Source of the DNA: Squalus acanthias | Taxonomy: Eukaryota | Assembly (NCBI GenBank): GCA_030390025.1 | Contig: CM059431.1 | Span: 155,808,001-155,872,000 of the forward strand | Direction of reading: 5' to 3' | Length of the DNA stretch: 64,000 nt | In this document: piece after piece, positions 32,944-64,000 of the stretch | How positions within the stretch are numbered: the first letter of the stretch is position 1 | Layout: each line of letters opens with the position of its first letter | Program-made: the position numbers and the translations under genes | Notes under the pieces: generated by a model | Databases searched by the model: none | Seen by the model: the letters and a program-made list of their open reading frames with translations, nothing else | Told to the model about the DNA's origin: nothing

Positions 32944-33034
32944 TTATTCTGTAATTACAGTCAAATGACCCGATACATTTTTGACCGACTTCAGATTTTT
33001 CTGTCCTGTTGCCGAGAATTGATTGTGTGTCAAA
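32944..33034 (-). CDS. NLR terminal coding exon
   Basis: tttttcag|T TTG ACA... = LTHNQFSATGQKNLKSVKNVSGHLTVITE-stop; phase 2 matches the previous exon; resembles an LRR cap. Confidence 0.82.
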
Positions 33035-36000
33035 CTGAAAAATATTAAAAGAACGAAAAAATAATTTTCGATAAGGAGTGGATTCTTCCGTTCACTGTGA
33101 GTAGCAAAATTATGAAATTCATTCAAAATGAATGTGTTTACTCATGCGAAGGACATACATTCTCCACGATATTATGTTTTCTATTTTCCCATATCTAGTC
33201 TATTCAAATTAAAATACCGAAAATGCATTTTACATGTGAAAGAACATTTAATTAATACATAGTTAACCTGGAAACACACCTGATTTCCTTGAGATAAGCT
33301 GTACTCTGGATGAGACGGCACAATGCCGGAACAGAATAGTCAGTCAGTCTGTTGGCCTGTTCGCAATCCTGATTATCGTTACTCAGATCCAGCTCCATCA
33401 GTGAACCGTTTTCACGGAGGGCAGAGACCAGATTTTCCACACAACGATCTGTGATATCGTTAGCTTTTAACCTGCAATGATCGAAAAATAAACAGAAATT
33501 ATATAAAACGCTCACACATTAAAATATACACCACTTGCTAATAATTACTGTGAAATTCCAGAGAACGCGGGAGAAATCTTTCATGATATATGCATTTTTT
33601 TTCTGTTTATAAATTATTTCCGTCTTAATTTGAATTGAAAAGTGAGCTGCCTGATCATCATTCGCACACTAGTTGTACAGTTCAATATTTTAAACATAAT
33701 TACTCACTCCAGTCTCTGTATTTTACAGTCATTTTTCTGCAGAACGGCAGAGAGCAGTTTGACTCCCGAATCTCCCAGTTTATTCTCATTGAGTCTAAAC
33801 AGGAATAACCAAAATCAATAATTCATAGTTAGCAATGCAATAAATAGGAAATATTCGTAATTAATTAATGCATTTAACGTGGGACACTTTGGCCATCCAA
33901 GACGCGAATATAATACCCGTAATTCAAATTCAATTCTATGATTTTTCCCAACAGCGATCTCATATATCATGATTATAGGGTAGGGGAATATATTTTACAG
34001 ATTAATCCAGATTCCCCCGTGGTGCAAAGAGTGCGCTTGATTCGAATGCAATGTTGCCAACATCCAATCTGATCTAATTAAATGAGCATCACAGCTCTTT
34101 CAGATATTACCTGAACAGACATTCCGGTGCCGTCCCTTAGGGTGCCATTTAGCACAGCAGGGAGTGGAATGAGAGAATGTGCTCATTATTTTATCGAATT
34201 CAGTGATTTTTTTTAGCTTTTACCAAATATTACCCCACATGCCAGTAAAACAGTAGTTGTTGATAATGATATTTAACATAGTCAGTGAATTACCTGAGTA
34301 TTTTACACTTTTGTAGCACGGGAGCCAGCTGATGGATGCCTTCATCTTGTATTCCACTTGTACTAAGATTCAACTCTTCTATCAGTTCAACGGCCAGTAG
34401 AGCGTTTGACAGAAACGCAGAGTCAGAAGGTTTAAGAGGGCATTGTGTGAATTTCATTGACTTTATCGATGTTAATGCGGCCTTCATCAGTTTTATGTCT
34501 CCAAATTCAAGAAAATAACGCAATATTTTTAAGAATGTCCTTTGGCTTTGCCCATCTTCCAAGTTCTGAACTCGAATTTTTACATTTTCTGTGAGCCAAT
34601 CCGACACACACTGGAATGCTTCAGAAGGAAATTGCCCCAATTTTCTTTCGAGCTGATCAGTTGAATTCCTTGTGGAGAGACCAGAAAGAAACCGTAAAAA
34701 TGTCTTAAATCTGTCGTCACTGCACGCGTGCCATTCATTGAGGAAGCGTGTCAGGTCATCTCCTGGTGTCCTTAGACGTTTCATAAGTGCTGCAACAAAG
34801 TCCTGCATAACGGAATGAGTGAATGTGTAGTCAACACTACAAAGATCTTTGCCTCGAATCTCCATCATAAACGCAGAGATAACATTGGAATGTTCGAGAC
34901 TGTGGTGATTGATTTGTTTTTTCTTGAAAACAACGGTTTTGTTGCAAAGTCCCTTGTATGCTAACTCGCCCAGTTTCTGCAACATGTCGCGAGAGGTTTC
35001 CGCGTCGCAGCCGCATCTCTCTAAAAGGCTTGTGACGTAAGCGGAGAACACCCGAGTACTGGTTGTGACGGACAATGGTCTCTCCTCCGCTCCTTCTGCC
35101 CGGTGTGACTCTAATAATGAAGCGAGGACCGAGCAGTACAGAGGATTATTGCACATGGTGTACAATGTCTCATTCTGCTCAATATACTCGATTACATCTG
35201 TCAGAAACTGCTCATCTCCAAAATAACGGCGAAAATATTGCTTTATTTTCTCAGAGGTGAAACCCAGGATTTCGAAGGTTCGAATTAGATTCGCCTTTTC
35301 CAGAGACTCCAGTTTCCACGGTCGGCTTGTGATCAGTACTGAGCAGCCCTTGAGCAGTTCCCCCTTTATGAGGCTTCGCACGATTTCTGACACGTCACAG
35401 AAGCACTCGGGATCGAAACACTGATTTTGGGGGTCGTTGTTTCTCTGAATATCTGTGAAATCAATGGGTTGCCTAAATTCTTCTAAATCATCAAATATAA
35501 ACAATATATTTCCGGGTTGTTTCCACAAAAGTTCAAACTCATTTTCGAAATCGGGGTAGGAATCCAGGATCAGGCTATTTAGACAAGTTTTTCCTTTTAT
35601 TAAATTTAATTTTCGAACCTTGAAAGGAAAGACAACTTTAAACTGTTGGTATATTTTCCCTGCGGCCCAGTCACTGATTATGTTCTGTATCATGGTGCTT
35701 TTCCCAATCCCCGAGGCCCCAATTACAACGGTTGTCCCAGAACTGCCTGTTTTAGCGAAACTCAGCAATTGATCCAGCTGAATCTCTTCCAGTTCATCCT
35801 CGATGTTTTTCCTCTGTAATTCTTCACGCTCTCTACCTCGGGCCATCAGTTCATTTTCAACAAGACTCCGCTCACGCAGTGAAGCAACAATCGTTACTTT
35901 AGTATATTTTTGATGCAGAAAAAATCTTCGAGATCTTTCTTTTTCTACAGTGGATATGACTGTTATTTTCTCGTTCTGTTTGCGGAGGTTGTCTTTGTGC

Positions 36001-39000
36001 TGTAGTTCTATATCTAAATATGAACAACGTAATTGGTGCAGTCATTGTAATTCAGGAGAAACATATTTAACAGATCAATGCTATGAAGGAGAAACTAATT
36101 GTCAAGAAATATTGTAAAATATCTAAAATATCTCAGCAATGAGTCATCCCTTAATTATTTTACACTTTGTTGTCCAGACACTCATAGAATTGAAAAAAAT
36201 AGAATTTCTGAAGTGCCAGGAAGCAAGCTTGAGGATTGTAGGCCGTTTGCTGTTGGATTTTGAACTTCTGGTAATGAAGATTTCAAAAATTCGAGATAAA
36301 TTGCTGAGTGAGTAACTCTTGCAGGTATTTAATTTTCACAGGTCAATTTGGGTTATGAACGACTCCTGGTTTCGTGGTGTAACAAACGATGTTCGGGAAC
36401 CGCGTGTCTGAGCAGAAAACGAGTTCCTTCATTATATTCTAGCCACGAGGATTCCATGTGTTCTGATTGTGCTGCTCACTGCTGTAACCGTTAGACACAT
36501 TTTGCTGGCCAGCGGAGCCCGCAGGAGACTACGGGGTCAGAGTAGTGGGGAGAACCGCAGAGACCCAGAGATGGAAAGTCGAAGGAAATCCATCATTTTA
36601 CTGTTTGTTATATCGGTAAAATAAATTTGGGCCAGAAATTATGGTCTCCACGGGTGAGTAAGCTTTGGGTACTCACCCGTAGACCCAACGAAAGTGCCGG
36701 TGTCGCGCATGCACTGCGCATGCGCAGGAAAATGGAGCTTCCTTCCCCTGAAGTAAGGGGTTCAGAGGTCGAACGCGTGCGCCCGAGAGGCAGAGCGCAC
36801 GCAGCTAACTTTGATTTTTTTTCAGGTATCTCCGTGATGGTAAGTACGGAGAACTTGCGCGGGGAAAAAGGAGGCACAAGGCCTGCTTTTAACAAGGTAA
36901 GTGGTGAATTAAATACAATTTAAACACTTTTTCAACAGGTTTATCTTTTTTACATATTTTACAGATAGGTAAGTTTATTTTTAGCACCGTTAAAATGTGT
37001 AAATATATTTTTCAAAAATTTATATTTTTGTTTAAATTAGTTAATTTATGTAAGTTATAGTTATTTTAAAAATGTGATTTTTTTCATATATTTGAGGTTT
37101 TAGTGAGGTTCTGGGGCCGATCTCTATTCATAGATTTGACAGGTCTTCCTGTCAAAATCTATGAATGAAGTGTCCCTGCTCCGATTGGCACTCCATGGCC
37201 AACGTGATCCCAAGGGACGCTTCAAACTAACTGCGCCCCTGCGATACGCAAGCATTGTGTGCCGGTAGCTGCAGGAGGCCCAGGAGCCGAATTCCACGCA
37301 GGCCCGAAGCACAACGGCAGGCGTAGTACGCGCCCGATTCTTGCACCCGCGGGAAGCCGGAGTGCCGAATTTCTGGCCCATTGTTATGATCAGTCTTTAT
37401 CGTGTATTATATTTGGTAGCGAATGTGGTTTTCTGCGTATCAGCCTTTATTACTACCTAGTTTTTTACAAGAAATTTGCTTTACTGTTCTATATATATCT
37501 GTATACACAAAAGTATTTACATGTATATATATACACATAAAATCCATATGTAAACATACATTAGTATCAAAATATTAATTTACCATATTTTGAAGCGCAG
37601 TGAAGATTTCTTATACTTACAAATACTGGTAATGCCCATGGTGAAACCTCCGCTCCAAAAAGGTAAACGCATTATGAGAGCAGAGCAGGACACAAACGGC
37701 ATCAAGTCTGGCCGTCCGACTTTCAGTTTTATTGGTCAATGGAAGGCAACATCGGACTGAGCCCATAACGGGAGGCAGATATATTACCCGCCGTTTTGTT
37801 TTCCCGTCCAAAACAATTTTAACCCACTTGGTGTCAAACTAACCAATTTCATAATAAGTCACTATCAGTCAGCTTGCATACATGCACTGATGCATGGAAT
37901 ATTTGCATTTCGATAAGTTTACTGAATTATGGCATGTCAATTGTACGATGTCAACAACGTTTTGTGAAACAAGTCGAAATAATCCGTACTGGCCTCATTA
38001 TATTTTTTGTCATAATTTGGTTCTTTTGTAATTATACATTTGTCAAATATAAGTGATACGGGATGAAATTGGCCATGGGCGGGGGACGCTAAACTAGATG
38101 TATTGTATGGATCGCCTGTTATAAGCTTCGCTCAATATTCAGATCCATTGACTTTAATAGAACGGATAATCTGGCGTGTGTTAATACGGTGGGGGAATGC
38201 GATTCTGCTTGTTTTGCGTGGTTGCCCCTGTCGAACTTCAGCCTCACAAATTTTAAGTTAAAAACAAGTTCTCTCCATAAATAATATACTTTGTTATTCT
38301 GACGGTAAATTAGATTTGGATACCACCTACCTTCTAGATCACTTTCTCCGTCTGTACCTTTGGTCAGTATCTCTGACAATGTTGTTTTCAGCTTGGTTTC
38401 TTTACCCTGCAGATGAAACAAAGTGCACCAGATTGTTCTTTGTGCCCGAGCTCCCTTTTCCAGCACGGTATCGAAAATAAGTTCGGAGGCTTCATTTCTG
38501 CGGTGACTTTCAGATAGGGTTCTTATATTCTAAAAATAAAATATATTGCAATCAAATACAGCAAAGTGATTTTCAAAATCGGATAGGAAAGGTCTTTTCT
38601 CTTTCTCTCTTTCCTTAGGAAAGGAATAAATGGAAACGCTCAGAATCGGGTGTTAATGCAGAAAACAATTAAGTTCGCCATTACTGAGACGGCAGGCGTG
38701 AAATGCAATGAACATTAAGTCGAAACAACAATAACTCATGCAGCAGAACGTCCCAATGCGCTTCAGAGGAGTTTTACCAAACAAAACTTAACACCAAGCC
38801 TCAGAGTTATATATTAGCACAGGTGACCAAAGCTTGGTCATAGAGGTAAATTGTAAAGAGCATCTTTGAGAAGAAAGAGTTAGAGATTCAGAGAGGTTTA
38901 CGGAGGGAATTCCAGAGGTTAGTGTCTAAACCGCTGAATGCACGGCAGGCAATGGTGAAGCTATGAAAATGGGGGTGCACAAGAGGCCAGAATTGGACGA

Positions 39001-42000
39001 GCGCCGGGATCTCGACAGGATTACAGGACAGGACAACGTTACATAAATAGAAAGGACCAGCGTTGAGTCACCCAGGGCGCCTGGATTTTCTGTCATTATA
39101 ACCAGGCGCTTTATCTCCCAATCCTGACCTTATATAAGGCACGCCAATCACATCATTATATCATACGCGCAGATAAGTTGTACCTTAACTAATGAGCTTC
39201 ATTCACAGAACTTTGTTTATTCACATTTGCGTTACATAACTGAGGAGGTATTGGACAAATTGAACAGTTTAGCATCATACATTAGTCGCGGTTTTTTTTA
39301 AGAAATGGGACATTATGGCATTCATGGGGAGAGAGGATGTGGCCTCGGGAGATGTCCCAGAGCATTGGGCCGAAGTAGGGTCGGGACTTATGAAGAAGTA
39401 GAATGGAAGAAATGACGTGGATATGTTCAGTAGAAATGGTTTAAACCCGCGCAGCCTGCAGTGGCTCAATCCAGTTCGATGGTTTACTGGAAACGCACGG
39501 CCGATTTCATAGAGAACGGGCGGAAAATTTCGGCCCTGATCGTAGGGAAATTCCTACAGTTAACTTTGTATATGCCAGTTAATGCCAGTTATTACAGTTT
39601 TGATCTGTCTTCAGGTTTTCCACTGGGACTGTAATGAGCACGCGTAATACTTGCGCTGCTCGCTGTGACTTTTCGAGGGCTCTTGGCTACTGGAATTACA
39701 TTAACTGCACGAAGTTTGGCAGTGAATTCTCAGATCCCCAGGATACTCATTGTGGCAGAACACCGATGACAATGCCATTGAATGTCAACGGCAATTGGTT
39801 AGGATTTCTCTAGTTGCAGGTAGGCAGTACCTGGGACTTAGGCGGCATAAATGTAAGCTGCCACTTATCGGCCAAACCTGGATGTTGTCCAGTTGTTGCT
39901 TCATGCGGGCATGTACTGCCTCATTTTCTGAGGAATTGCGAATGTAACTGAACACTGTGCAATCATCAGCGAGGAACCTAAATTCTGAATGTTTGAAGGA
40001 AGTTCAATGATGAAGCAGCTGACGATAATTGCGCCCAGCTGGCAACCGTTTAAATATCACGGTTAATCCATGAGTTCCTGTACTCTTAATATGAATGCAT
40101 TCATGAAAATTCCAGAAAGAATACATTGACAGAGAGATATCTCAGAAGAGCACTACAAATGTTGGTTACACTGGCACCGGACAACAATTTCATGGTGGCT
40201 ACAGAAGTTAAAGAAGTACAGCATTAAGTATTGCTTATATCGTTAATTGCACAGAACAATGTCTGTCTAAACAGTCAATCATATGACTCATTTAACACTA
40301 TATGAAGCTAACATATATGAAGCATACCTTGTGATCTGTTTCAGTAAACACGTTTGCCTCTACGAGCGATTGGCTAACGTCCTCTATTACCTCCTCAATT
40401 GACTGTTCTAGTCTCTGACGATAGGAAACGATAATTCTGCGCAGCTGGATATTCGTGCATCTCGCCAGCGTTAGTAAGATTTTATTACCTGAATTTTCTG
40501 TCAAGGTGCAAATGAGAACACATTAACATACAGTGGCCGCTATGAAACAGTGAATAAAGTGAACTAACAGCTATGGCAACAGCAGTTGTTCAGAGTCTTT
40601 CAAGCTGTGGCACGCCCTGTGGAGCGTTACTGATGTGGTATTCAGAATTAACGCTGCCTTTTTTGCTGGAGTTAAGATAAATAGCCCAGTCCTTGAAACA
40701 TGTGGTCGCTGTTTAAAATAAGTATGCGGTAGAGAGGTTGAAGCTCAGAGGAACTGATTTTGAATCAGTGGGAATGAATTCTATGCCTGGAGTCCAAAGC
40801 AGATGAACCGATACACTGGGGACAACCACAAAGGGAGAGTTGGGACAGGAGTGTAACAGGGGGGATGCGGAGACGACATTTGAGATAAGATGGGCGAGGG
40901 ATGTGTAAATGAGTAGGAGGATTTCACAAATGATCAATGTGGGATAAGAAATCAATGTGGATCAGTTAATGAGGGCACTACGGATCCATGCAACGAATGT
41001 TGTATTTGAATCGGAGTAGTAGAGCTCTGTCTAAGCTGGAATATATAAAGGGCAGTGCCAAATGTCGCATAAAGAATCAGGTATAAAACACACAGAAGCA
41101 TGCATAAAGTAACAACATTCAGTCCCTTCCCAGCGGCATACCGTGGCTGCAGTGTGTACCATCTAGAAGATGCACAGCAGCAACTTGTAAAGGCTTATTG
41201 ACCCAAACACGCGAACTCTATCACCTAGAAGGACAAGAGAAGCAGGCAAATGGGAACACCACCACTTCCAAGTTCCCCTCCAAGTCTCACAACTTCCTGA
41301 CTTGGAACTATAATGCCGGTCCTTCATCGTTTCTTGGCCAAAATCCTGGCACTTCCCCCCAACAGCATTGTGGGAGTACCTTCACCACAAGGACTGCAGC
41401 AGTGCAAGAAAGCGGATAACCACCATCTTCTCAAGCACAATTAGGGATGGGTAATAAATTTTGGCCTTGTCAGCCACGCCAACATCGCTTGAATGAATAA
41501 AAAATATATATTTATATTGAAACGTATGTCCGGATAATTACCCTATAACTGTTCCGGACGATGATCTGAGATCCCAGGTTATATTGCACAGTGTATCACG
41601 AACATACCAGGTGTGCATTGGTTTCACAGTGTATCACGGTGCTACCTGCTGTATATAGGTTTCCACAGTATATCAGGAAACTGTCAGTTGTGGATGGGGC
41701 ATCAGAGTGTATCAGGATAGTGAAAGGTGTTTATGGGGTTTCGCGGTGTATCAGGATACTGACAGGTGTTTAGGGGGTTTCAAAGTACATCAGGATCCTG
41801 CAAGATATGTATGCGGTTTCACTGTATATCAGAATATGCCAGGTGCGGGTGGGCTTTCAAAGCCTATCGGGATCCTGCCAGGTGTGTATGGGGTTTCACA
41901 TTTTGTCGGGATCATATCAGGCATCTGCGGGCTGAAAACGGTATGAGGATCCTGGAATGTGTGTATGGGGTTTCAGATTGTAACAGGATTCTAAGAAATA

Positions 42001-54000: not shown

Positions 54001-57000
54001 CTATTGATGGATTAGCTCATCTATATTCTGGTGTAATGGAATACACGGCTGGTTAAAGTATGCAGTCGATGCATCATCATAAGCACACTTCAGGGTGAAG
54101 GGTAAAAGCACAAGCAGTGAATTTACCGACAGTTGCCTATATGTTGGTTCGTGCTGGCTGGCGCGAACTGGGCACGCGTCAATGGGTGTAATTGTGGCTT
54201 TCTTACTTTGTGAGTTAAATTAAAACCTGCTGAAGTGAATGGGCAGCCGCTTTTACATCTCTCTCGATTTTGATATCCTTTGACTATGTTCGCTCGTACT
54301 TTCGATTCGCTATCGCCCATTTTACACCATCACACGACGACACATTACCGCCGAGAACGATGCCTGTGCCGTAAGGTGTCGTCCTGAGACCCACCCGATA
54401 TTTGGCATTTGGTCTCGTTTACAGCAGATTGGGGAGGTGCAGTCACCTGCTGAGTCTCCACAGGCAGCTTGCGAAGTGACCATGACTTTAATGTCGGCTT
54501 CTCAATGGGGCGACTGGGAAAGTTAAATGCGTTCTGGATGGAGCGTCGACCAGATGAGGGCGAGATAGAAGTTGTCGACAGAGAGAGAGTGTGGGACCGG
54601 TAGAAGTGCGACGGAGGCAAACATCGGGAAAGTGAAAGAGGCAATCGAGAATAATATCCGGCGAGATACAGTAGTTTTTATTTGGTGCTAGAAGGGGAAC
54701 TCCTGAAATTAATGGCTCCACATTCGGTTAAATATTTTCTGAAACTTATCTTGTGTTCGGGGTCTGCAGAAGACCCTTTAACGATCGCCGGTTCGATGGA
54801 TCGATTTAACCGGAACCTCAGCCGTCAAAGACATTTTACCGGAGAGAGCAAAAGGAAAGCCATCGTTGAACCGAGATTGAGTGTGAGATTTGACAGAAGT
54901 CAAGAGGTCATTTCAATTCGCAATTCGAGTAAAATTTACCTCACTTTTATAGATGTGAGTTAACAGTCTCCGATAAGCTGGAATATACAACTGAATGACA
55001 AGGGAAAGAAAACATTGCTTGAAGTTTACTGGATTGAATTCAATGACTGGCGGACATATCTATTAAACAAAAAGAGAAATCTCACCGGATGTTTGTGCGG
55101 TTCTGTTATATCCGCCGCCTCCTTTTTCTTCCAGCCGTGGATGTAGATCTTCATTCACTGTGTGTGTGGGGCTGATCTCACTGTAAATATCCGTGCTGAG
55201 CAGAGTTTTTGTCGGAGCATTTTCCTGTTGGCTCTGATTATAAAAAAATATGATTAGATAAAAAATGGCTGACTTTTCGGCTTCTGAGCAGGCCAAGGCA
55301 CAGACTTCCGCAGCCTGTGCAATAACCGGCACTGATATTTTGAGATTCCCAAGGGAGTGCGTAAAACATATTCTGTAGATTTACATCGTAATGTGGATCC
55401 TAATAGCAAAAGCGAAAAAAACAAATGCAGGAAAGTTGTTTGAGAAGATGATTTTACTAAAACCAGAGTCCATATGAACCCGAAAAGATTATTTTGTCTT
55501 GAAGAGATCAATTGCTTGTATCATCGGGCTGAGGGAAGTTTTAACGTAAAATTCACACATATCTGACTAGACAAGTCTGAGCAGAGGTGAAGCGCGATCG
55601 CTGCACTAAAAGGAAAATTACATCGGAGGAGAATCCGAAATGGAAATCCCGTAGACGTAACAAAGCTGCACACAAATAGGTTCATTTCGCTTCCAATAAT
55701 TCAGAATTTAAATTGATGCCTGACCCCAAATTCCAGTGGTAAGAATGGTGGAACCGGGAAACAAACCGGAGAGTGGCGGGCGATACGGAATAAGATTGAC
55801 GATTGAAGTGACCATTGAAATGTAGTTAACAGTCAGAGTATAGAGGCGGGGATGCAGATACAATGCTAGAGTTCATATTGGAGACGAAGGTACAAATTCA
55901 AGGTCAGAGTTGGGGTTAGAGTTGAAGAGGCAGCTGCAGTCTAAGTGTTGGGAATGGAGGGGAGGGAGATGATCAAGGGATTATTTAGTTACTCGCCCCA
56001 CAGGATGAATCCTAATTTTTGCAAAATAAGGGACAGTTCTATGATTAAAGCTTGACTCAAAGTTAAGATGGACAACAAATTTCGAGTATGAAGGAGGACC
56101 GATCTGAAAACAGACCTTCCTGAATATCTTCAATTACATTCCAGAGCTTCCAGTAAAACTGATTTTCCTGAATATCGAAAGGCAGTGACTATTGGCGATG
56201 AACACGGAAGTCGACAAAATGCCACTTTCAGAGCAGTGGTGATTCAAATGCAACGATTTGCCTCCGCATTAGATTCGGGGCAGAAATCAGTCAAAATTAG
56301 CCTCTGAGAGGCACCCGAGCGGAAATTAGGTAAGGATGTAGAAATTTCAGCAATCATCTTTTTCCCCCATTTATAATACATCAGAGGGAGTGAGGGTCCA
56401 TTTTACCATTGCTCAGTGCAACTTCTGAAAAGAAAGGGTGCGAAAGCAGAAAAACTGCTAAAATTAAAACACTAGAAATCTAGTCAATGTTGCCGTTGAT
56501 TAAGCAAGGTCCTGTTCCATTCAGGTCAGACATACCTCATATTCTACCCGAGCGAATAGCTTTATATGATTTTGATTTGCACGGACTCCGTTCACCGATC
56601 CTTCAATATCTTCAGGAATTCTATCCGGATACAATTCAGTATCTTTTGATTGTTGAGTTTCAGCGTTTGTCGACAAAGTTAGTCCAACTCCAGTAATATA
56701 ATCTCCTGTAAAATATAAGTGGAACAAAAATTACCGGAGTAGTTGTAATAAACGAGAATACTTTGGGAAATGTGCATAGAAATCTCTTGGACTGCATCAA
56801 AGCAATTTATTAAAACGAGGAGTGAACGTCAAATAATTAATAATCGTTATTAATATATCTGTCTGACTGACTTTCTGCCTGTCTCGCTGTTTACCTGTCT
56901 GTCGATCAATCTATATATTACCTATAAAGCCATCTGTCTATATGATTACCCTATTCATGGATTAGCTAATCTGAATTCTGGGGTAATGGAATACACGGCT

Positions 57001-60000
57001 GGTTACTGTATGCAGTCGATGCATCATCATAAGCACACTGCAGGGTGAAGGCTTAAAGCACAATTAGTGAATTTACCCACAAATGCCTATAAATTGGTTG
57101 GCGCGAACTGGGCACGGGTCAATGTTTGTAATTGTGACTTTCTTATGGTGAGAAAAAATTAACACGTGCAGAAGTGAATGGGCAGCAACTTTTACACCTC
57201 CCTAGATTTTGATTTCCATTGTCTACGTTCGCTAGTACTTTCTATTCGCTATACCCATTTTACATCATCACACGACGCCACATTACCGCCGAGAAAGGTC
57301 CCTCTGCCGTAAGGGGTAGTCCCGAGACACGCCCGATATTGGGCCTCTGACCTCGTTTACAGCAGACCGGGGAGATGCAGCCACATTCAGAGCCTCCACA
57401 GGCTGCTTGCGAAGTGACCATGATTTTAACGTCGACTTCTCAATGGGGCGACTGGGAGAGTTCAATGTGTTCGGGATGAAGGGTCGACCAGATGAGGGCG
57501 AGATAGAAGTTTTCGGCAGAGAGAGAGTGAGACCGGTAGAAGAGCGAGGGTGGCAAACATCGGGAGAGTGAAAGAGGAAATCGAGATTAATGGCCGGCGA
57601 GATACAGTGGTTTTAATTTGGTGCTAGGAGGGGAAATCCTGAAACTATTGGTTCCACATTCAGTTAATTATTTTCTGAAACGTATCTTGTGTTGGCGGTC
57701 TGCAGAACACCCTTTAACGATCGCCGGTTCGATGGATCGAGTTAACCAGAACCTCAGGCGTCAAACACATTTTACCGGAGAGAGCGAACGGACAGCCATG
57801 GTTGAATCGAGATTCAGTGTGAGATTTGACAGAAGGACCAGACGTCATTTTAGATCATTTTTATAGCATTTCGAGTATAATTTACCTCACTGTTATAGAT
57901 GTGAGTTAACAGTCTCAGAAAAGCAGGAATACAAAACAGAATTACAAGAGAAAGAAAACATTGCTTGAGGTTTACTGCATTGAATTGAATGACTGGCCGA
58001 TATATCTATTAATCACAAAGAGAAATCTCACCTGATATTTGTGCGGTTCTTTCATATCCGCCGCCTCCCTTTTCTTGCAGCCGTGGATGTAGATCTTCAT
58101 TCACTGTATGCGTGGGGCTGACCTCACTGTAATTATCCGTGCTGAGCAGAGTTTTTGTCGGAACATTTTCCTGTTGTCTCTGATTATAACAAGAATATGA
58201 TTAGATATAAAATGTCTGACTTTTCGGTTTCTGAGCTGACTAAGCTTCAATTTTCCCCAGCCAGGGCCATAACGGACACAGCTATTTGAGTGTCTCCAGG
58301 GCGGTGTTACTGTAGACATAAATCGTGATGCGGATCCTAATAGCAAATGCAAAAACAACAAATGCATGAATATTGTTTTTTAAGATGATTTAATTCAAAC
58401 TGGAGTTGTAGTGATCGCAAGAAGCTTATTTTGTCTTGAAGAGAGCAATCGTTTCTTCGTAGGTTTCAGGCAGTTTTTAACGTAAAATTCACAAACATCT
58501 GACGAGTCAGCTCTGAACAGAGGTGAGCAGGAATCGCTGCATAAACAGGAACAGAACATCGGAAGCATATTCAAGACATTTAAACCCCATAGGCATCGGA
58601 AAGCTGGGCACATAGGTACATTTCGGTTCCAATGATTCTGATTAAAGCTGCGCTAAATAAATACGTGACACCAAATTCTGGAACAAAGAAAGATGGAACC
58701 GGAAAACAAGTCGGACAGTGGCTGGCGAAACGGAGTCAGATTAATGATTGGAGTGACGATTGAAATGCAAATCACAGTTAGGGTATAGAGACAGGGACGC
58801 AGGTAAAATGCGAGAGTCGTGACTGGAAGCGCAGGTACAAATTCAAGGTAAGAGTTCGGGTTAGAAATGTGGAGGCAGATACAGTCTAAGTATTTGATAT
58901 GGAGGGGAGGGTCATGACCAAGAGGTAATTAAGTTACTGGGCCCACAGGATGTATCCGAATTCTGGCAAAACAGGGGATAGAACTATGATTGACGCTTTC
59001 CTGAAAGTTATTTGCACAACAAACGTTGAGCATTAAGGAGGACTAATCTGAAAACAGATCTTCCTGAATATTTTAATTATATTCCAGAGCTTCCAGTAAA
59101 ACCGACATTGCTGAATTTCGAAGTGCAGTGACTGTTAGTCATGAACACGGATGTGAACCAAATACGACTTTCAGAGGAGTGGTGATTCCGATACACGGAG
59201 CTGTCTCCGCATTAGTTTCGGGGCTAAAATCGGTCAAAATTAGCGTCTGAGAGGCACTCAAGCGGACATTAGGTAAGAAAGTGGAAATCTCAGCAATCAT
59301 GCTTTCCCGTCATGCAAAATGTCGCAGAGGGAGCAATGGCCCATGTTAACATTGCACAGTTCAACTCCCCTACTTCAGAAAAGAAAGAACGAGAGACATA
59401 AAAACTGCTTATATTTAAACAATAGACGTCTAGTCAATGCTACCACAGGTTATGATAGGTCATGTTCAACTTATCTTAGACATACCTCATATTTTACCGG
59501 AGTCAATAGATCTTTATGATTCTGATTTCCACTGATACCGTCCACAGATCCTTCAATAGCTTTAGGTAATCTATCACGATACAATTCGATATCTTTGGAT
59601 TCATGAGTGTCAGCCTCTGTCGACACAGTTGGTCCAACTCCAGTAATAACATCCACTGTAAAGTACAAGTGGAAAAAAAACCATCTCGGAATAGTTGAAG
59701 TAAACGAGGATACTTTAAGAACATTACAAGATAAGACATTGGAGCAGGAGTCGGTCATTAGGCTCCTCGAGCCTGCTCCACCATTCAATAAGATCATAGC
59801 TGATCTGATCTTGGCCTCAACTCCACTTTCCTGCCCGCGTCCTATAACCCTTAACTCCCTTATCGATCAAAAATCTGTCTATCTCAAACTTAAATAAATT
59901 CAATGACCCATCGTCCAAAGTCTCTGAGGAAGAGAATTCTAAAGATTCACGACCCTCTGAGAGAAGAAATTCCACCTAATTTCCGATTTAAAAGGGTGCC

Positions 60001-63000
60001 CCCTTATTCTGAAATTGTTCCCCCTAGTTCTAGATTCTCCCTCGAGGGGAAACATCCTCTCTGCATCTACCCAATCAAGCCCCTTCAGAATTTTATAAGT
60101 TACAATACGATCCCATCTCATTCTTCTAAACTCCAATGAGTATAGGTTCAACCTACTCAACATTTCTTCATAAGATAATCCCTTCATCTCCGGAATCAAC
60201 CTCGGGAACTTTCACTGAATTGCCTCCAATGCAACTATATCCTTCCTTAAATAGGGAGACCAAAACTGTACGCATTACTCCAGCTGTGGTCTCACCAACG
60301 CCCTGTACAGTTGTAACAGGACTTCCCTGCTTTTATACTCCGTTCCCTTTGCAATAAAGGCCAACACTCCATTTGCCTTTCTAATTACTTGCTGTACCTG
60401 CATGGTAACATTTTGTGATTCATGTACAAGGACCCCCAGATCCCTCTGTCCCTCTGCATTTTGTAATCTCTCCCCACTTAATTAATAATTTGCTTTTTTA
60501 TTTTTCCTAACGAAGTGGATAACCTCGCATTTTCCCACATTAAACTTCATCTGGCAGATTTTTGTCCACTCACTTAGCCGTTCTATATCCCTTTGGAGAT
60601 TCTTGGCGTGCTCCACACAATTTGCTTTCCCACCTATCTTTGTATCATCAGCAAAGTTGGCTTCATTACTCTCAGTCCCTTCATCCAGTATTTAATATAG
60701 ATTGTAAATTGTTGAGGCCCCAGCACTGATCCCTGTGGCATTCCATTATTACAGTTTGCCAAGCTGAAAATGACCTATTTATCCAGACTCTCTGTTTTCT
60801 GTTAGTTAGCCAATCCTCTATCCGTGCTAATATATTACCCCCAACCCCGTGAGCTCTTATATTGTGTAGTAACCTTTAATGTGGCAACTTATCGAATGCC
60901 TTCTGGAAATCCAAATACACGACATCTACTGGTTCCCATTTATCCAACCTGTTCGTTGCATCCTCAAAGAACTCCAGCAAATTTGTCAAGCAAGATTTCC
61001 CTTTCATAAAACCATGCTGACTCTGCTTGTCTATATTCTGATTTTCTAAATGACCTGCTATCACTTCTTTATTGATGGACTCCAGCATTTTCCCAATGAC
61101 AGATGTTAGGCTAACTTGTCGATAGTTGCCTGCTTTCTGTCTCCCTCCTTTCTTAAATAGGGGCGTTAAATTTTTGGTTTTCCAGTCCGCTGGGATGTCT
61201 CCAAAATCCAGGGATTTTTTGTTAGATTACAGCCAATGCATTCACAATCTCTACAGCCACCTATTTTAAGACTCTAGGATGCACGCCATCGGGTCCAGGG
61301 GACTTGTCCACCTTTAGTCACATAAGTTTCCCTAGTATTTTCTCTCTAGTGATAGTGATTGTTTAAGTACCCCCCTCCCCACCCGAATAACCCCATGATT
61401 ACCCATTATTGGGATGATTTTAGTGTCTTCTACCGTGAAGACCGGTACAAAATATTTGTTCAAGCTCTCCGCCATTTCCTTGTTTCCCGTTATTATTTGG
61501 CCAGACTCATCCTCTAGGGGACCAACGTTTAATTTAGCTATTCTCTGCCTTTTTATATACCTGTAGAACCTCTTACTGTCTGTTTTTATATTTCTTGATA
61601 GCTTACTCTCATAAGCTATCTTCTCGCTCTTTATCATTTTTTTAGTCGACCTGTGATGCATTTAAAAAATTTTCCAATCCTCTGGCCTTTCACTATTCTT
61701 CTTAAAATTGTTTGCTTTTGTTTTCAATTTGATACCATATTTTCCTTCCTTAGTTAGCCACAGATGTTTCATCCTTCTCTTAGAGTCTTTCTTTCTCACT
61801 GGAATATATTTTGCTGAGAGTTATGAAATATATCCTTAAAAGTTTGCCACTGCTTTTCTACCGTCCTACCCTGTAATATATTTTCCCAGTCCACTTTACC
61901 CACTTTAACTTCATACCTTTGTATTTATCTTTCGTTAAGTTCAGGACACTAGTTTGAGACCTAGCTTTCTCATACCCAAACTGAATTTGAAATTCTACCA
62001 TGCTATGATCATTCTTCCCAAGGGAATCCTTCACTTCGAGATCATTAAGTAATCCAGCCTCGTTACAAATTGCCAGATATAAATAATCTTCCCCTGGTTG
62101 GTTCCACAATATATTGTTCAAAGTAACCATCCCATATACACTCTAAGAACTACTCATCAAGTCTACTTTGCCAAATTGATTTGTCCAAACAATATGAAGA
62201 TTAAAATCTCCCATGATTAGAGCCGTAATTTTCTTACAAGCCTCTATTAATTCTTGATTTATTCTCTGTCCTACCGTGTCGCTACTGTTTGGGGGACTGA
62301 AGACAAATCCCACCGATGACTTTTTACTCTTATTCTTTCTTATCTCCAAACAAATTGATTCTACATCTTGATCGTCTACGCCAATATAAGTTCACATAAC
62401 TGGACTGATCTCATCCCTTATTAACAGAGCTGCACCACCTCCATTTGCTTTCTGTCTATCCTTACAAAATGCAAATATCTCATAATATTCAGTTCCCAGC
62501 CTTGGTCAACTTGCAACCACATCTCAGTAATGGCCATCAGATCATACCCATATATGTTTTTGTGCTGTCAACTCATCTATCTTGTTACGAATGCTGCATA
62601 CGTTCAGGTATAGAGCTTTTTATATCGTCTTTTTACCATTTTCCCTACTCTGACCACTCTTTCTGATGCACTCTTATGTGTATACGTTCTGTCTCTTCCT
62701 GTCACACTTTGTTTATCATTACCACTATCGCTACCCAGCACTTTTGCATTCTCATTTAACGTTATCTTTTTTAATTTCCACTCAGCGTATCCCTCCCCCG
62801 CACTATTTAGCTTAATGCCCTATCTACAGCCCAAGTTATTCGATTCGCCAGGACACTGGTTCCAGCCTGGTTCGAATGAAGCCCGCCCCGACTGAACAGC
62901 TCCCTCTGATCCTAATGCTGTTGCCAGTGCCGCAGGAATCGAAACCCATTTCTCCCACACCAAACTTTCAGCCACTCGTTCATCTCTCTGATCTTATTTA

Positions 63001-64000
63001 ACCTATGCCAATTTCCACGTGGCTCAGGTAGTAATGCGGAGATTATTACCTTTGTGTTCTGCTTTTTAATATAGCCCCTAGCTGCTCAAACTCCCTCAGC
63101 AGAACCTCTTTCTTTGTCCTACATAGGTTATTGTTACCTACATGACCACGACAACTTAATCTTTCCCTTCCCACTTTGAAAAATATACTTAGATATCTCT
63201 TGGACTGCATCAAAACAATTCAAAATAAGAAGAGGGAACGTCAAATAATTAATAATCATTATGAATATACTGCCTGACTGACTTTCTTCCTGTCTCGCTG
63301 TTTGCCTGTCTGTCGATCAATCTATCTTTTATCTATAAAGAGACCTGTCTATATGATTACCCTATTTATGGATTGGTTAAACTGTACTCTGGTGTAATGG
63401 AATACACGGCAGTTTACTGTATGCAGTCGATGTATTATCATAAGCACACTGCAGGGTGAAGGCTTAATGCACAATCAGTGAAATTACCGACAATGTCCTA
63501 GAAATGGGCACGGGGAGGGGATGCAGTTTTGACATCGTGAGATTAATTGGAACGTGGTTAAGTGAATGTGCAGCCCCTTTTACATCTCTTCTGATTTTCA
63601 TTTCCACTGGCTACTTTCGCTGGTACTTTCAATTCGCTCTCGCCCATTTTACAACATAACAATAAGCCAAAATTACCGCCTGGAATGATCCCTGCGCCAA
63701 ACAGGGTAGGCCTGACCCCCACCCGAGATTGAGGTATACAGCATTGAAATGAAATAGTTGTGATTATATCAGTTCAACAAAAAGAGTAAACTCACCGGAC
63801 GTGTATATTCTTTTGTCATACCCGTTCGCTCCTTTCGCTTGCAGCCGTGGATGTCGAGGTGCATTCAATGAATGTGTGTGGCTCATCCTGTAAGTATTCA
63901 TGCTGAACAGATTTTCCGCAGGAGCATTTTCCTCTTCGTTACGATGAAATATTTCAGATTTAATACTGACAGGTCTATGCGTTATAGATGTATTCGTATG
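32944..64000 (-). CDS. Spliced NOD-like receptor (NLRC-type): N-terminal array of degenerate CARD-derived repeats, intact CARD-like domain, FISNA-like linker, NACHT, short LRR; 5' end outside window; at least 1205 aa
   Basis: Exons in transcription order: 64000(open)-63796, 59655-59486, 58179-58032, 56705-56536, 55233-55086, 53070-52901, 51595-51448, 40497-40328, 38529-38331, 36013-34294, 33794-33708, 33471-33280, 33034-32944. All junctions are GT-AG with matching phases; total 3618 nt, no internal stop. Confidence 0.75.
33280..33471 (-). CDS. NLR LRR exon (192 bp)
   Basis: cattgcag|G TTA AAA... = LKANDITDRCVENLVSALRENGSLMELDLSNDNQDCEQANRLTDYSVPALCRLIQSTAYLKEI, donor AG|gtgtgt, phase 2-2. 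Confidence 0.9.
33708..33794 (-). CDS. NLR LRR exon (87 bp)
   Basis: tttag|A CTC AAT GAG... = RLNENKLGDSGVKLLSAVLQKNDCKIQRLE, donor GA|gtgagt; ribonuclease-inhibitor-type LRR, phase 2-2. Confidence 0.92.
34294..36013 (-). CDS. NLR large exon (1720 bp): FISNA-like segment, NACHT NTPase, HD1/WHD/HD2, first LRRs
   Basis: Acceptor catatttag|AT ATA GAA (DIELQHKDNLRKQNE...). Walker A GASGIGKST, Walker B-like ILFIFDDLEEF, sensor-1 VLITSRP, MCNNPLYC, WHD motif YTFTHSVMQDFVAA, LRR start IEELNLSTSGIQDEGIHQL. Donor CTCAG|gtaatt (phase 2). Contains ORF 34290..35846. Confidence 0.95.
36628..37380 (+). mobile_element. Complete MITE in the NLR intron (possibly PIF/Harbinger-ISL2EU group)
   Basis: Perfect 13-bp TIR tgggccagaaatt (36628-36640) / aatttctggccca (37368-37380); no transposase ORF. 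Confidence 0.85.
38331..38529 (-). CDS. NLR CARD-like domain exon 2 (199 bp)
   Basis: ttatttttag|AAT ATA AGA = NIRTLSESHRRNEASELIFDTVLEKGARAQRTIWCTLFHLQGKETKLKTTLSEILTKGTDGESDLE, donor GAAG|gtaggt (phase 1). An alternative phase-1 donor AAAG|gtacag lies at 38358. The A-x-x-L-I-x-D-x-V-L-x-K-G pattern resembles the C-terminal helices of CARDs. Confidence 0.85.
38700..39060 (-). mobile_element. L2-like 3' remnant
   Basis: aacgtcccaatgcgcttca...ggagggaattccagagg pattern. Confidence 0.5.
40328..40497 (-). CDS. NLR CARD-like domain exon 1 (170 bp)
   Basis: ccttgacag|AA AAT TCA = ENSGNKILLTLARCTNIQLRRIIVSYRQRLEQSIEEVIEDVSQSLVEANVFTETDHK, donor AAG|gtatgc; phase 1 to 0. Confidence 0.85.
41560..44650 (+). 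repeat. Minisatellite 2 array inside the NLR intron, interrupted by a LINE fragment at about 42700-43090
   Basis: Same 39-bp unit. Confidence 0.92.
44650..46325 (+). mobile_element. CR1 with a large internal deletion (ORF1 start joined to ORF2 RT)
   Basis: Cys-rich ORF1 start near 44915, then RT motifs (YINDID...KFAADTK); tail (ttctatga)n. Confidence 0.8.
46330..50610 (+). mobile_element. Degenerate CR1 (ORF1 esterase and endonuclease region), split by a younger CR1
   Basis: ORF1-like gtggtaggtgacaatatagtc; ORF2 RSIRNKFDEL...ETWLQ; resumes at 49242. Confidence 0.85.
47124..49241 (-). mobile_element. Young 5'-truncated CR1 with an uninterrupted ORF2 RT portion
   Basis: ORF 47363..49297 (644 aa; the first residues come from flanking DNA) with YLDFQKAFDKVPH, GVPQGSVLGP, KFADDTK; tail (cataagaa)n; ttaa duplicated at 47120-47123 and 49242-49245. 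Confidence 0.95.
50610..51250 (+). repeat. Minisatellite 2, continued; the first 100 bp or so are inverted
   Basis: ctgtgaaaccccatacacaccctggcaggatccc (reverse unit) at about 50610, then forward units. Confidence 0.85.
51448..51595 (-). CDS. NLR N-terminal repeat exon B1 (148 bp), degenerate CARD exon-2 derivative
   Basis: ttctaatcag|AGC CAA CAG = SQQENAPPETLLSADNYSEVSPTHTVNEDLNPRLQEERASGYDRTAETS, donor CCG|gtgagt; phase 0 to 1, compatible with the acceptor at 40497. Confidence 0.75.
52901..53070 (-). CDS. NLR N-terminal repeat exon A1 (170 bp), degenerate CARD exon-1 paralog
   Basis: tattttacag|GC GAT GAT = GDDITGVGLTLSKDAETQQSQDTELYPVRIPEAIEGSVDGVRVNQNHINLFAGVEYE, donor GAG|gtatgt; same length and phases as exon 40328-40497. 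Confidence 0.78.
53291..53522 (+). mobile_element. RTE-type LINE 3' fragment
   Basis: Encodes a terminal C2H2-like motif CPTCDRVSRSLIALISHLRTH; absent from the other repeat units. Confidence 0.7.
53523..53838 (+). mobile_element. HE1-like V-SINE (tRNA-derived)
   Basis: A box tggcatagtgg (53527-53537), B box ggttcgaatcc (53571-53581), V domain tgtgtggagtttgcacattctccccgtgtctgcgtgggtttcctccgggtgctccggtttcctcccaca. Confidence 0.9.
53839..53958 (+). mobile_element. CR1 3' UTR joined to the SINE
   Basis: gcaggtacagggtactg...gggccgaatggcctactcc...tttctatgtttctatg, similar to 4641-4750. Confidence 0.8.
55086..55233 (-). CDS. NLR N-terminal repeat exon B2 (148 bp)
   Basis: ataatcag|AGC... SQQENAPTKTLLSTDIYSEISPTHTVNEDLHPRLEEKGGGGYNRTAQTS, donor CCG|gtgaga. 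Confidence 0.75.
56536..56705 (-). CDS. NLR N-terminal repeat exon A2 (170 bp)
   Basis: attttacag|GA GAT TAT = GDYITGVGLTLSTNAETQQSKDTELYPDRIPEDIEGSVNGVRANQNHIKLFARVEYE, donor GAG|gtatgt. Confidence 0.78.
58032..58179 (-). CDS. NLR N-terminal repeat exon B3 (148 bp)
   Basis: ataatcag|AGA CAA CAG = RQQENVPTKTLLSTDNYSEVSPTHTVNEDLHPRLQEKGGGGYERTAQIS, donor CAG|gtgaga. Confidence 0.75.
59486..59655 (-). CDS. NLR N-terminal repeat exon A3 (170 bp)
   Basis: actttacag|TG GAT GTT = VDVITGVGPTVSTEADTHESKDIELYRDRLPKAIEGSVDGISGNQNHKDLLTPVKYE, donor GAG|gtatgt; YRDRLPKAIE matches YRQRLEQSIE of the intact CARD exon 1. Confidence 0.78.
59717..63172 (-). mobile_element. CR1 LINE inserted in the intron between exons B4 and A3
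   Basis: RT and endonuclease fragments (YLDFQKAFDKLPH, MGDFNLHI); acttt on both flanks; empty site visible in the other units (tactttgg(a/g)aaatgt). Confidence 0.92.
63796..64000 (-). CDS. NLR N-terminal repeat exon B4 (longer form, cut by the window edge)
   Basis: Frame open to the window end: HTNTSITHRPVSIKSEIFHRNEEENAPAENLFSMNTYRMSHTHSLNAPRHPRLQAKGANGYDKRIYTS, donor CCG|gtgagt; homologous to B1-B3 and to CARD exon 2. Confidence 0.7.

Follow-up and report, generated by a model that had tools for sequence, protein, structure and literature searches.

A shark NLR gene with in-frame tandem units of half a CARD and a leader-exon tail ahead of its CARD, NACHT and putative LRR exons

Results

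Gene structure

In a 64,000-nt stretch of the Squalus acanthias genome (GCA_030390025.1, contig CM059431.1, positions 155,808,001 to 155,872,000; hereafter the window), a minus-strand NLR gene carries three repeated two-exon units, A+B, ahead of its intact CARD. The A and B copies have remained readable across the gene family and were therefore probably translated, as a floppy, acidic arm at the N-terminus. Conceptual splicing of 13 minus-strand exons gave a single frame of 1176 codons with no internal stop, ending at TAA 32946-32944, with AG/GT at 12 of the 12 internal junctions.

At the 5' end of the gene lies a leader exon, designated L*, whose 3' part (63796-64000) had been described as a separate exon, 'B4'. 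Its donor (G|GTGAGT) directly follows 63796, but GT stands at the supposed acceptor, and 'B4' forms the 3' end of an open frame of 201 codons, which extends beyond the window as far as 64369 (extended coordinates). It is followed by exons A3 (59486-59655), B3 (58032-58179), A2 (56536-56705), B2 (55086-55233), A1 (52901-53070) and B1 (51448-51595). Each A exon is 170 nt long and runs from phase 1 to phase 0, each B exon is 148 nt long and runs from phase 0 to phase 1, and all six have AG/GT. One A+B unit therefore measures 318 nt, or 106 codons. The preliminary description had seven open upstream exons splicing in phase onto the CARD; the 1176-codon frame and the splice sites of the six A and B exons bear this out, while 'B4' as an independent exon does not stand.

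The B1 donor at 51448 joins in frame, by conceptual splicing, to CARD exon 1 (40328-40497, 170 nt, phase 1 to 0), which contains no ATG and thus needs an upstream coding exon. CARD exon 2 (38358-38529, 172 nt, phase 0 to 1) and a long exon open throughout (34294-36013; NACHT, NOD2_WH, NLRC4_HD2 and the first LRR) come next, and the gene ends with putative LRR exons of 87 nt (33708-33794, phase 2 to 2) and 192 nt (33280-33471, phase 2 to 2) and a last exon of 91 nt (32944-33034). No B30.2 exon occurs before the stop and there is no space for one after the LRR exons. There is likewise no space for a FIIND, as the gene ends after these short exons, and its CARD is N-terminal.

The tandem duplication of about 2.95 kb reported in the preliminary description is real. 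Direct-repeat families over 51.4-59.7 kb recur at start-to-start intervals of about 3635-3642 and 2936-2950 bp, and blastn of unit 2 explained the 3.64-kb period: a 677-bp insertion at 53291-53966 lengthens the 2.95-kb unit. The same search placed the array end at 51404, just beyond the B1 donor, and a partial extra repeat copy lies at 63.2-63.9 kb.

The NACHT exon matched Pfam NACHT (PF05729) at E 6.6e-35 and 120.8 bits (cut-off 26.7) and NOD2_WH at 43.2 bits (cut-off 23.1), and the best of 83 relatives were shark 'NLRP3-like' proteins with 58-59% identity, confirming the earlier assignment of the gene to the elasmobranch NLRs. FISNA was absent from the Pfam matches at E up to 1 in this exon, and the homologues matched it below cut-off (E 0.0076-0.096). 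The intact two-exon CARD-like domain, NACHT and LRR part of the earlier model, with three short putative LRR exons and the stop at 32944, was also upheld. Pfam returned no match on exon 33252-33518; the three 3' exons are 56-69% identical to aligned C-terminal regions of four shark relatives, and in one of these, P0009, Pfam identified LRR_6 in that region.

Profile matches to the CARD were faint. CARD exon 1 alone missed the gathering score of PF00619 (E 0.012, 16.1 bits vs 23.9), the homologues P0009, P0016 and P0025 all fell under the cut-off as well (E 0.0075-0.049), and a PDB profile search reached the RAIDD CARD at only E 0.047. The fold was modelled on the homologous P0009 segment, with 41% and 37.5% identity to the two exons of the window. 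The AF2 model of this segment has six helices at pLDDT 84, and nearly all of its top ~30 Foldseek hits were CARDs (TM 0.6-0.8), led by those of NLRC4, Apaf-1, ARC, NOD1 and CARD8 with TMt 0.73-0.80, at E values of only 0.17 or weaker. Judged by the modelled six-helix death-fold of its homologue, the two-exon domain is a CARD.

Origin of the repeated exons

The upstream repeats had been described as decayed CARD repeats, and this holds for their A half. When 13 A copies were compared with a CARD profile of seven other chondrichthyan NLRs, hhalign returned a probability of 95.4% (E 2e-8) and aligned columns 9-56 of A to columns 11-58 of the CARD. Local hhalign of A against 23 CARD exon-1 copies from the same genome gave 96.1% (E 3.2e-9), and hmmsearch of A against CARD exon 1 gave a best E of 6.7e-11 (window A3 2e-7, A1 1.3e-4, A2 0.014). 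A exons and CARD exon 1 have equal length (170 nt) and equal phase (1 to 0) and align end to end without gaps, and the A profile picks up the intact CARD exon-1 region in proteins of four other species. By these sequence comparisons, the A exons are diverged copies of CARD exon 1. The homology is visible solely at the protein-profile level, the repeat unit having zero DNA similarity to the CARD exons by blastn. In the A copies 10 of 18 core hydrophobic positions are gone; the second half keeps the amphipathic pattern of CARD exon 1 (positions 25, 29, 33, 37, 40, 49, 50), while the first half is now polar.

Exon B is not a decayed CARD exon 2, for which hhalign gave 0.56% over 11 columns. Tblastn and DNA alignments instead placed B on the 3' end of the long leader exon L of the gene family, a stretch of about 190 polar codons that leaves in phase 1. 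At its 5' border, each of the 15 short B copies has a pyrimidine tract and an AG, and seven of eight L copies have neither at that place. No decayed 5' part of L was found inside the B units, in which the L homology begins only ~10-40 nt before the B acceptor. From these alignments, B is the tail of leader exon L with a new internal acceptor, so the repeat unit is half a CARD plus a leader tail rather than a whole decayed CARD.

Coding constraint and predicted properties of the arm

Of 13 units, 1 contained an in-frame stop, whereas neutral simulation along the intron tree predicted 10.8 ± 1.9, and none of the 3000 simulations yielded one or fewer stop-bearing units. A star model expected stops in 8.1 of the 16 A copies and 11.1 of the 23 B copies, with one and none observed, respectively, and stops were absent genome-wide from 21 of the 22 A matches and from 26 of the 29 B rows; because the copies were gathered through protein similarity, these counts are biased against badly broken ones. 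Across 16 A and 23 B/L copies, acceptors were intact in 16 of 16, and donors in 15 of 16 (A) and 22 of 23 (B). Gap runs followed the same pattern: four of the five in 339 exon columns were multiples of 3, against 10 of the 81 in 1357 intron columns.

The encoded peptide behaved differently from the frame. Values of dN/dS were 1.03 for A and 0.89 for B, and those of individual segments ranged from 0.68 to 2.19 on short pieces, none under clear constraint. Exon identity (0.775 and 0.796) equalled that of the intron (0.771), so nothing points to selection on the peptide itself. Since stops and frameshifts are avoided at a dN/dS near 1, the family has maintained the frame of these exons without maintaining their sequence, which is what a disordered spacer between start codon and CARD would lead one to expect.

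From the 'B4' tail to B1, the spliced frame comprises 366 codons, with 16.7% D+E, 8.7% K+R, 29.5% S+T+N+Q and a pI of 4.7. Its GRAVY of -0.92 puts it on the disordered side of the charge-hydropathy plot, and the AF2 model of the A family reached only pLDDT 48 and pTM 0.10. The repeats are thus polar and acidic, as previously described, but the Pro/Gly richness claimed for them is just mild at 12.8%.

Paralogues, the start of the gene and alternative explanations

The window gene belongs to a very large chromosome-end cluster of elasmobranch CARD-NACHT-LRR genes, which spans 153.7-159.6 Mb and has more than 100 CARD exon-1 copies. The A+B unit recurs in several paralogous arrays of the cluster; window units 1, 2 and 3 each pair with a distinct unit of a sister array at 156.77 Mb, and copies in more distant arrays are 50-60% identical. 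Unit number and order vary freely among paralogues. At 154.86 Mb, for instance, the order is L, L, A, B, CARD exon 1, CARD exon 2 and another CARD exon 1, with no NACHT in the 20 kb surveyed, and in L018, the sole single-L relative examined, it is L, CARD exon 1, CARD exon 2 and NACHT exon.

Outside this genome, a full HMMER scan of 1.84 billion representatives returned four matches at E <=0.001, two low-complexity proteins and two whole-CARD tandem proteins, none of them an A-type repeat. Searches of other species' annotated proteins found no A- or B-type repeats, those for longer proteins being word-indexed and weak. Among the 83 relatives, B/L-like stretches occurred in only P0006 and P0010.

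We also looked for a first exon between 40500 and 51400, which would have detached the repeats from the NLR, and found no conventional one. No L-like sequence was present at 40.5-51.4 kb. A crude scan of the same interval gave 18 ATG-to-phase-1-donor candidates; 17 were assigned by position to LINE, satellite or other repeat-derived sequence, and splicing of the remaining one (41327-41291) would make a TAA at the junction. The B1-to-CARD intron is collinear with that of the paralogue except for a 4.7-kb LINE and satellite insertion.

Leader exon L* differs from its relatives at both of its 5' signals. An ATG stands at the same place in six of seven compared L copies, but L* has ATA there, 325-327 nt beyond the window end, and TTTAC replaces the TTTAG acceptor of the other copies. 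Five out-of-frame ATGs precede its first in-frame ATG. With the usual ATG and acceptor lost, either the window gene starts at an ATG in the 'B4' part, where codons 14 and 19 are in-frame ATGs, or it was recently disabled.

The second of these options leads to the strongest alternative, that the array is a young relic. Ancestral genes would have translated the A and B exons, as some paralogues may do even now, while the N-terminal region of the window gene would be dead with its frame not yet decayed, and the CARD-NACHT-LRR body either untranslated or read from some other start. Besides the two lost signals and the out-of-frame ATGs of L*, the surroundings fit this account. In the closest paralogue (NACHT 91% identical), a B exon is frameshifted, one A contains a TGA, an A donor is missing and the reading frame of NACHT is shifted, which shows that genes of this type do die; a dead gene fragment with an L remnant full of stops, two CARD exons and no NACHT adjoins directly upstream; and the B1-to-CARD intron contains, at 46595-51327, a LINE insertion that the paralogue lacks. 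The gene itself argues otherwise, with 13 of 13 exons open and all splice sites intact, whereas the sister gained at least four lesions over ~9% divergence. L* has also kept its 201 codons free of stops, it shares with the other copies a second in-frame AG 9 nt downstream of the lost acceptor, and the 'B4' part offers in-frame ATGs. We regard a young relic as unlikely, though it deserves serious consideration.

That the arm works as a sensor, a decoy or an autoinhibitory module derived from the signalling domain of the receptor itself, such as a protease-cleavable bait of the NLRP1/CARD8 kind or a half-CARD masking the real one, appears improbable. The amphipathic half of A, the long maintenance of the frame and the predicted acidic disorder would all suit such a role. 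But a dN/dS near 1 lends the idea no support, the segments show no clear constraint, the exons are conserved no better than the intron, B has no CARD origin, a FIIND has no space, and the paralogues differ freely in unit number and order. Its most specific form, in which the A-unit array acts as an intramolecular CARD mimic or pathogen-protease bait and the real CARD stays silent until the arm is removed, seems equally doubtful, and a particular sensing role for the arm is not indicated.

A tandem-CARD fusion, in which intact CARD exons lying upstream, 8.7 and 19.5 kb from the window end, would be spliced in frame to L* via the second AG to give a CARD, the disordered array, a second CARD and NACHT-LRR, is the least credible account: both exons are open with AG/GT and have no NACHT of their own, the second leaves in the phase 1 that fits the downstream AG of L*, an in-frame ATG lies just 5' of the first and Scyliorhinus torazame and Hypanus sabinus have annotated multi-CARD proteins, but the L exon of the upstream fragment is full of stops, its first CARD exon has the usual phase-1 acceptor and so expects an exon upstream, and the L* acceptor would be weak (AG after an A run).

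Discussion

We lean towards the explanation that the A/B units are spliced and translated as an acidic disordered N-terminal spacer whose frame, but not sequence, is kept. Unequal crossing-over would have duplicated a segment in which a CARD exon-1 copy, the later A, lay together with the final ~150 nt of L, the later B; B may then have taken an internal AG as its acceptor. As A runs from phase 1 to 0 and B from phase 0 to 1, any number of 318-nt units could fit in frame between L and the real CARD. Spliced into the mRNA, each unit would add ~106 residues to an intrinsically disordered acidic extension. The frame would be selected because a start codon lies upstream and CARD-NACHT downstream, and the sequence would not. 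The likely effect is a flexible spacer of variable length ahead of the CARD.

The array would thus offer a clear and datable case of the way in which expanded families of vertebrate NLRs acquire variable N-termini. Half a CARD and the tail of a leader form a phase-symmetric module of two exons, which unequal crossing-over would have multiplied and which is held in frame while its sequence drifts. The analysis further yields a gene model and family census of a shark NLR cluster for whose N-terminal architecture we found no description. In plant NLRs, an integrated decoy mimics the host target of a pathogen effector. If the arm were regulatory, it would be an animal counterpart of the integrated domains of plant NLRs; and should the CARD-mimic or bait reading be true, a vertebrate NLR would carry an integrated decoy derived from its own signalling domain, with the unit number tuned by unequal crossing-over.

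Duplicated CARD-coding exons ahead of a sensor core recall NOD2 and RIG-I/MDA5, which have tandem CARDs. Whole-CARD tandem copies also occur within the same chondrichthyan family, in S. torazame GCB66031.1 and H. sabinus XP_059818528.1. Such proteins keep both CARD halves and should fold, whereas the shark array copied exon 1 only and has lost 10 of its 18 core positions. NLRP1 and CARD8 require a C-terminal FIIND-CARD and N-terminal degradation. The likeness to them lies in the long disordered N-terminus of an inflammasome-type receptor, but the CARD of the shark gene is N-terminal and there is no space for a FIIND (ZU5-UPA).

An expanded NLR family near the NLRPs has been reported in the whale shark genome paper (PMC8455134), and the whale shark proteins P0011 and P0019 are among the relatives of the window gene. 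The passages of that paper considered here do not describe N-terminal exon structure, leader exons or half-CARD repeats (PMC8455134).

The closest analogue is found in zebrafish, so that the shark architecture is not wholly new, as far as can be judged from parts of the published account. According to these, the zebrafish NLR-B30.2 (NLR-C) genes of groups 2-4 have N-terminal peptide repeats encoded by exons, with exon shuffling (Howe et al. 2016, PMC4852459). Both are hugely expanded, chromosome-end NLR families; both have repeated short peptide units on their own exons, in zebrafish sometimes ahead of a death-fold domain; and in both the unit number is variable and units are shuffled between members (PMC4852459, in part). 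The zebrafish unit is a single exon of ~30 aa, described in these parts for this NLR type only (PMC4852459), whereas the shark unit spans two exons (56+49 aa), which can be traced back to CARD exon 1 and to the leader exon. The shark gene also differs in having no FISNA Pfam match and no space for B30.2, and its family is a separate expansion.

The NLR body and its N-terminal exon array

In the NLR body of the gene, which lies on the minus strand, the NACHT exon is a 583-codon open frame (36041-34290) with Pfam matches to NACHT (E 6.6e-35), NOD2_WH (4.1e-11) and NLRC4_HD2 (3.3e-6). Its best relatives were shark proteins labelled NLRP3-like or NLRP12-like, the nearest from Heterodontus francisci with 58-59% identity, followed at lower ranks by chimaera, coelacanth and tetrapod NLRs. 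Two LRR exons (33794-33708 and 33471-33280) and the last exon (33034-32944, with TAA at its end) matched four shark relatives over their C-terminal parts. CARD exon 1 (40497-40328, 170 nt) and CARD exon 2 (38529-38358, 172 nt) shared 41% and 37.5% identity with the CARD-like segment of P0009, a relative from Scyliorhinus torazame. The Pfam CARD match was sub-threshold both in exon 1 of the window (E 0.012) and in three relatives (E 0.0075-0.049). An AlphaFold model of the P0009 segment, built with a seven-sequence alignment, had six helices and a pLDDT of 84, and CARDs, including those of NLRC4, Apaf-1, ARC, NOD1 and CARD8, made up nearly all of its top ~30 Foldseek matches, with target-normalised TM scores of 0.73-0.80 and weak E-values (at least 0.17). 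From this predicted fold and its matches, we accepted CARD as the domain identity at the level of the family. Immediately 3' of the gene there is a frame for an endonuclease (Exo_endo_phos_2, E 4.1e-9).

Upstream, direct repeats run across 51.4-59.7 kb, with a partial copy at 63.2-63.9 kb. They have two periods because unit 1 carries, relative to unit 2, a 677-bp insertion (53291-53966) that turns the ~2.95-kb period into one of ~3.64 kb. On the gene's strand, the 3'-most limit of the array is position 51404. Within each unit, a 170-nt A exon runs from phase 1 to phase 0 and a 148-nt B exon from phase 0 to phase 1, and both are bounded by AG and GT. Conceptual splicing of the B4 tail, A3, B3, A2, B2, A1 and B1 to the two CARD, one NACHT and three LRR exons gave a single 1176-codon frame uninterrupted by stops. 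The exon map of the preliminary description is correct. The predicted arm is acidic and disordered (D+E 16.7%, pI 4.7, GRAVY -0.92).

Bipartite origin of the repeat unit

The A exons share length and phase with CARD exon 1 and align with it ungapped over the full length. With hhalign, 13 A copies matched a CARD profile built from seven other chondrichthyan NLRs at 95.4% (E 2e-8) and 23 CARD exon-1 copies of the same genome at 96.1% (E 3.2e-9). In hmmsearch, the window's A exons had E-values of 2e-7 (A3), 1.3e-4 (A1) and 0.014 (A2). Hydrophobicity is kept in A at 8 of 18 core positions (those with a hydrophobic residue in 80% or more of 15 intact CARD exon-1 copies), all but one of them in the second half, and AlphaFold gave no fold for the A family (pLDDT 48).

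A CARD origin of B was ruled out, as it has no resemblance to CARD (0.56%). The B exons are copies of the terminal ~150 nt of L, a long polar leader exon that precedes CARD exon 1, CARD exon 2 and NACHT, in that order, in the single-L relative L018. An ATG stands at the same place in all but one of the seven L copies compared, with a CATGG context in four. A pyrimidine tract with AG is present in all 15 short B copies and absent at that site in seven of eight L copies. The exon marked as B4 is the 3' end of a complete L exon with a 201-codon frame that extends 369 nt beyond the window end. The earlier view of the repeats as decayed CARDs therefore holds for A and fails for B: each unit combines half a CARD with a leader tail rather than being a whole decayed CARD. 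From these origins and the identity of B4 it follows that the gene architecture is L, three (A+B) units, CARD, NACHT and LRR.

Family cluster and paralogous arrays

The window occupies positions 155808001-155872000 on contig CM059431.1 of a 3.7-Gb assembly. This assembly contains more than 100 strong matches to CARD exon 1, about 8 of them with a stop codon. Nearly all lie at 153.7-159.3 Mb near the end of the 159.8-Mb contig CM059431.1, often 4-9 kb apart, and constitute a very large tandem NLR cluster. At the protein level A had 22 and B 29 genome matches, and the A-B unit is restricted to this contig, in several arrays at 154.3-159.6 Mb (49 rows). In the sister array, at 156.77 Mb, four units precede a CARD whose exon-1 peptide is 100% identical to that of the window; the NACHT there is 91% identical, and this paralogue is damaged in at least four places. 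Since window units 1, 2 and 3 each match a separate sister unit, the array is older than the duplication of the two genes.

Elsewhere, two and three L copies stand in tandem ahead of an A at ~1.65-kb spacing (L019:5027-7232 and L020:4425-8285), each with an open frame upstream of its ATG and two acceptor AGs 9 nt apart; in L018 the stretch before the ATG contains stops. In the annotated protein P0085 (Scyliorhinus torazame GCB66031.1), three whole CARDs are followed at the end by an exon-1-like half CARD. The annotated P0086 (Hypanus sabinus XP_059818528.1) combines two CARDs with a duplicated leader. Neither has a NACHT, and the family thus shows duplication of whole CARDs as well. Many family members in other species start with Met-Gly and small residues, which resembles a myristoylation signal; the variable N-termini of others contain hydrophobic stretches that look transmembrane-like, and several have repeated N-terminal segments (relatives P0001, P0012, P0018, P0022, P0086; P0002, P0005, P0009, P0011, P0013). 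In P0006, an annotated NLR from Stegostoma tigrinum, a B/L-like stretch (residues 730-766, E 3.2e-5) lies C-terminally and may be due to a gene model extending into the next gene's leader exon.

Constraint on the reading frame of A and B

Genome-wide, stops are absent from all but one of 22 A matches and all but three of 29 B rows, among copies gathered by protein similarity and thus with badly broken ones under-sampled. Among the alignable copies (16 A and 23 B/L), acceptors are intact in 16/16 A and 15/15 short B, and donors in 15/16 A and 22/23 B/L. In the alignment of 13 units, 81 gap runs fall in the 1357 intron columns, 10 with a length divisible by three, and 5 in the 339 exon columns, 4 with such a length. 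The sole exon frameshift is in the sister paralogue. Neutral simulation on an intron-derived tree predicted 10.8 +/- 1.9 stop-bearing units of 13 (the expectation was also computed under a star model); one was observed, and none of 3000 runs had so few. Selection on the peptide itself is countered by dN/dS values of 1.03 for A and 0.89 for B (0.68 to 2.19 in short segments) and by exon identity equal to intron identity. The simplest reading of these patterns is that A and B exons would be part of mRNAs, placed after the start codon and before the CARD, now or until recently, and that their frame alone would matter.

The leader exon of the window gene

The gene's own L exon has ATA at the start site, versus ATG in six other L copies, and TTTAC at the acceptor, versus TTTAG in other copies. 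It retains an in-frame AG, common to other copies, 9 nt downstream of the lost acceptor; the second of the L copies at 154.86 Mb has lost its first AG too. In-frame ATGs ahead of the CARD occur at only two places, codons 14 and 19 of the B4 segment, with five out-of-frame ATGs 5' of them. Directly upstream, past the window end, lies a gene fragment (extended coordinates 72926-72669, 83685-83476 and 85781-85327; loci L011, L012 and L043) consisting of a stop-filled L remnant and a pair of open, AG/GT-bounded CARD exons; no NACHT exon occurs between it and the window's L exon.

In the 10.9-kb intron ahead of the CARD, a crude scan revealed no convincing alternative first exon. This intron holds an insertion (46595-51327) absent from the equivalent intron of the sister paralogue, with a minus-strand LINE reverse-transcriptase frame (47363-49306, RVT_1 E 4.8e-31) and a block of a 39-bp satellite (50826-51165). 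Long arrays of this satellite (also with periods 78 and 117) at 41587-44521 are present in the sister's intron as well. Further LINE pieces lie at 59900-62400 and 29819-30970, and the copy between A3 and the L exon is 73-79% identical to that at 47.4-49.2 kb.

Comparison with known systems

A decoy or sensor role of the arm is speculative. An NLRP-related family is expanded in sharks according to the whale shark genome (PMC8455134), an account whose consulted passages make no mention of N-terminal structure. Full-text searches for NLRs of sharks or cartilaginous fish yielded no paper on repeats of half-CARDs or leader exons. Annotated proteins of Scyliorhinus torazame and Hypanus sabinus include tandem arrangements of whole CARDs. 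The nearest known kind is the zebrafish NLR-B30.2 family, whose N-terminal extensions consist of repeated ~30-aa motifs, one per exon, shuffled among groups and sometimes followed by a death-fold domain (PMC4852459). New in the shark array are the traceable bipartite origin of its unit, the phase symmetry and the evidence pointing to a frame-only constraint.
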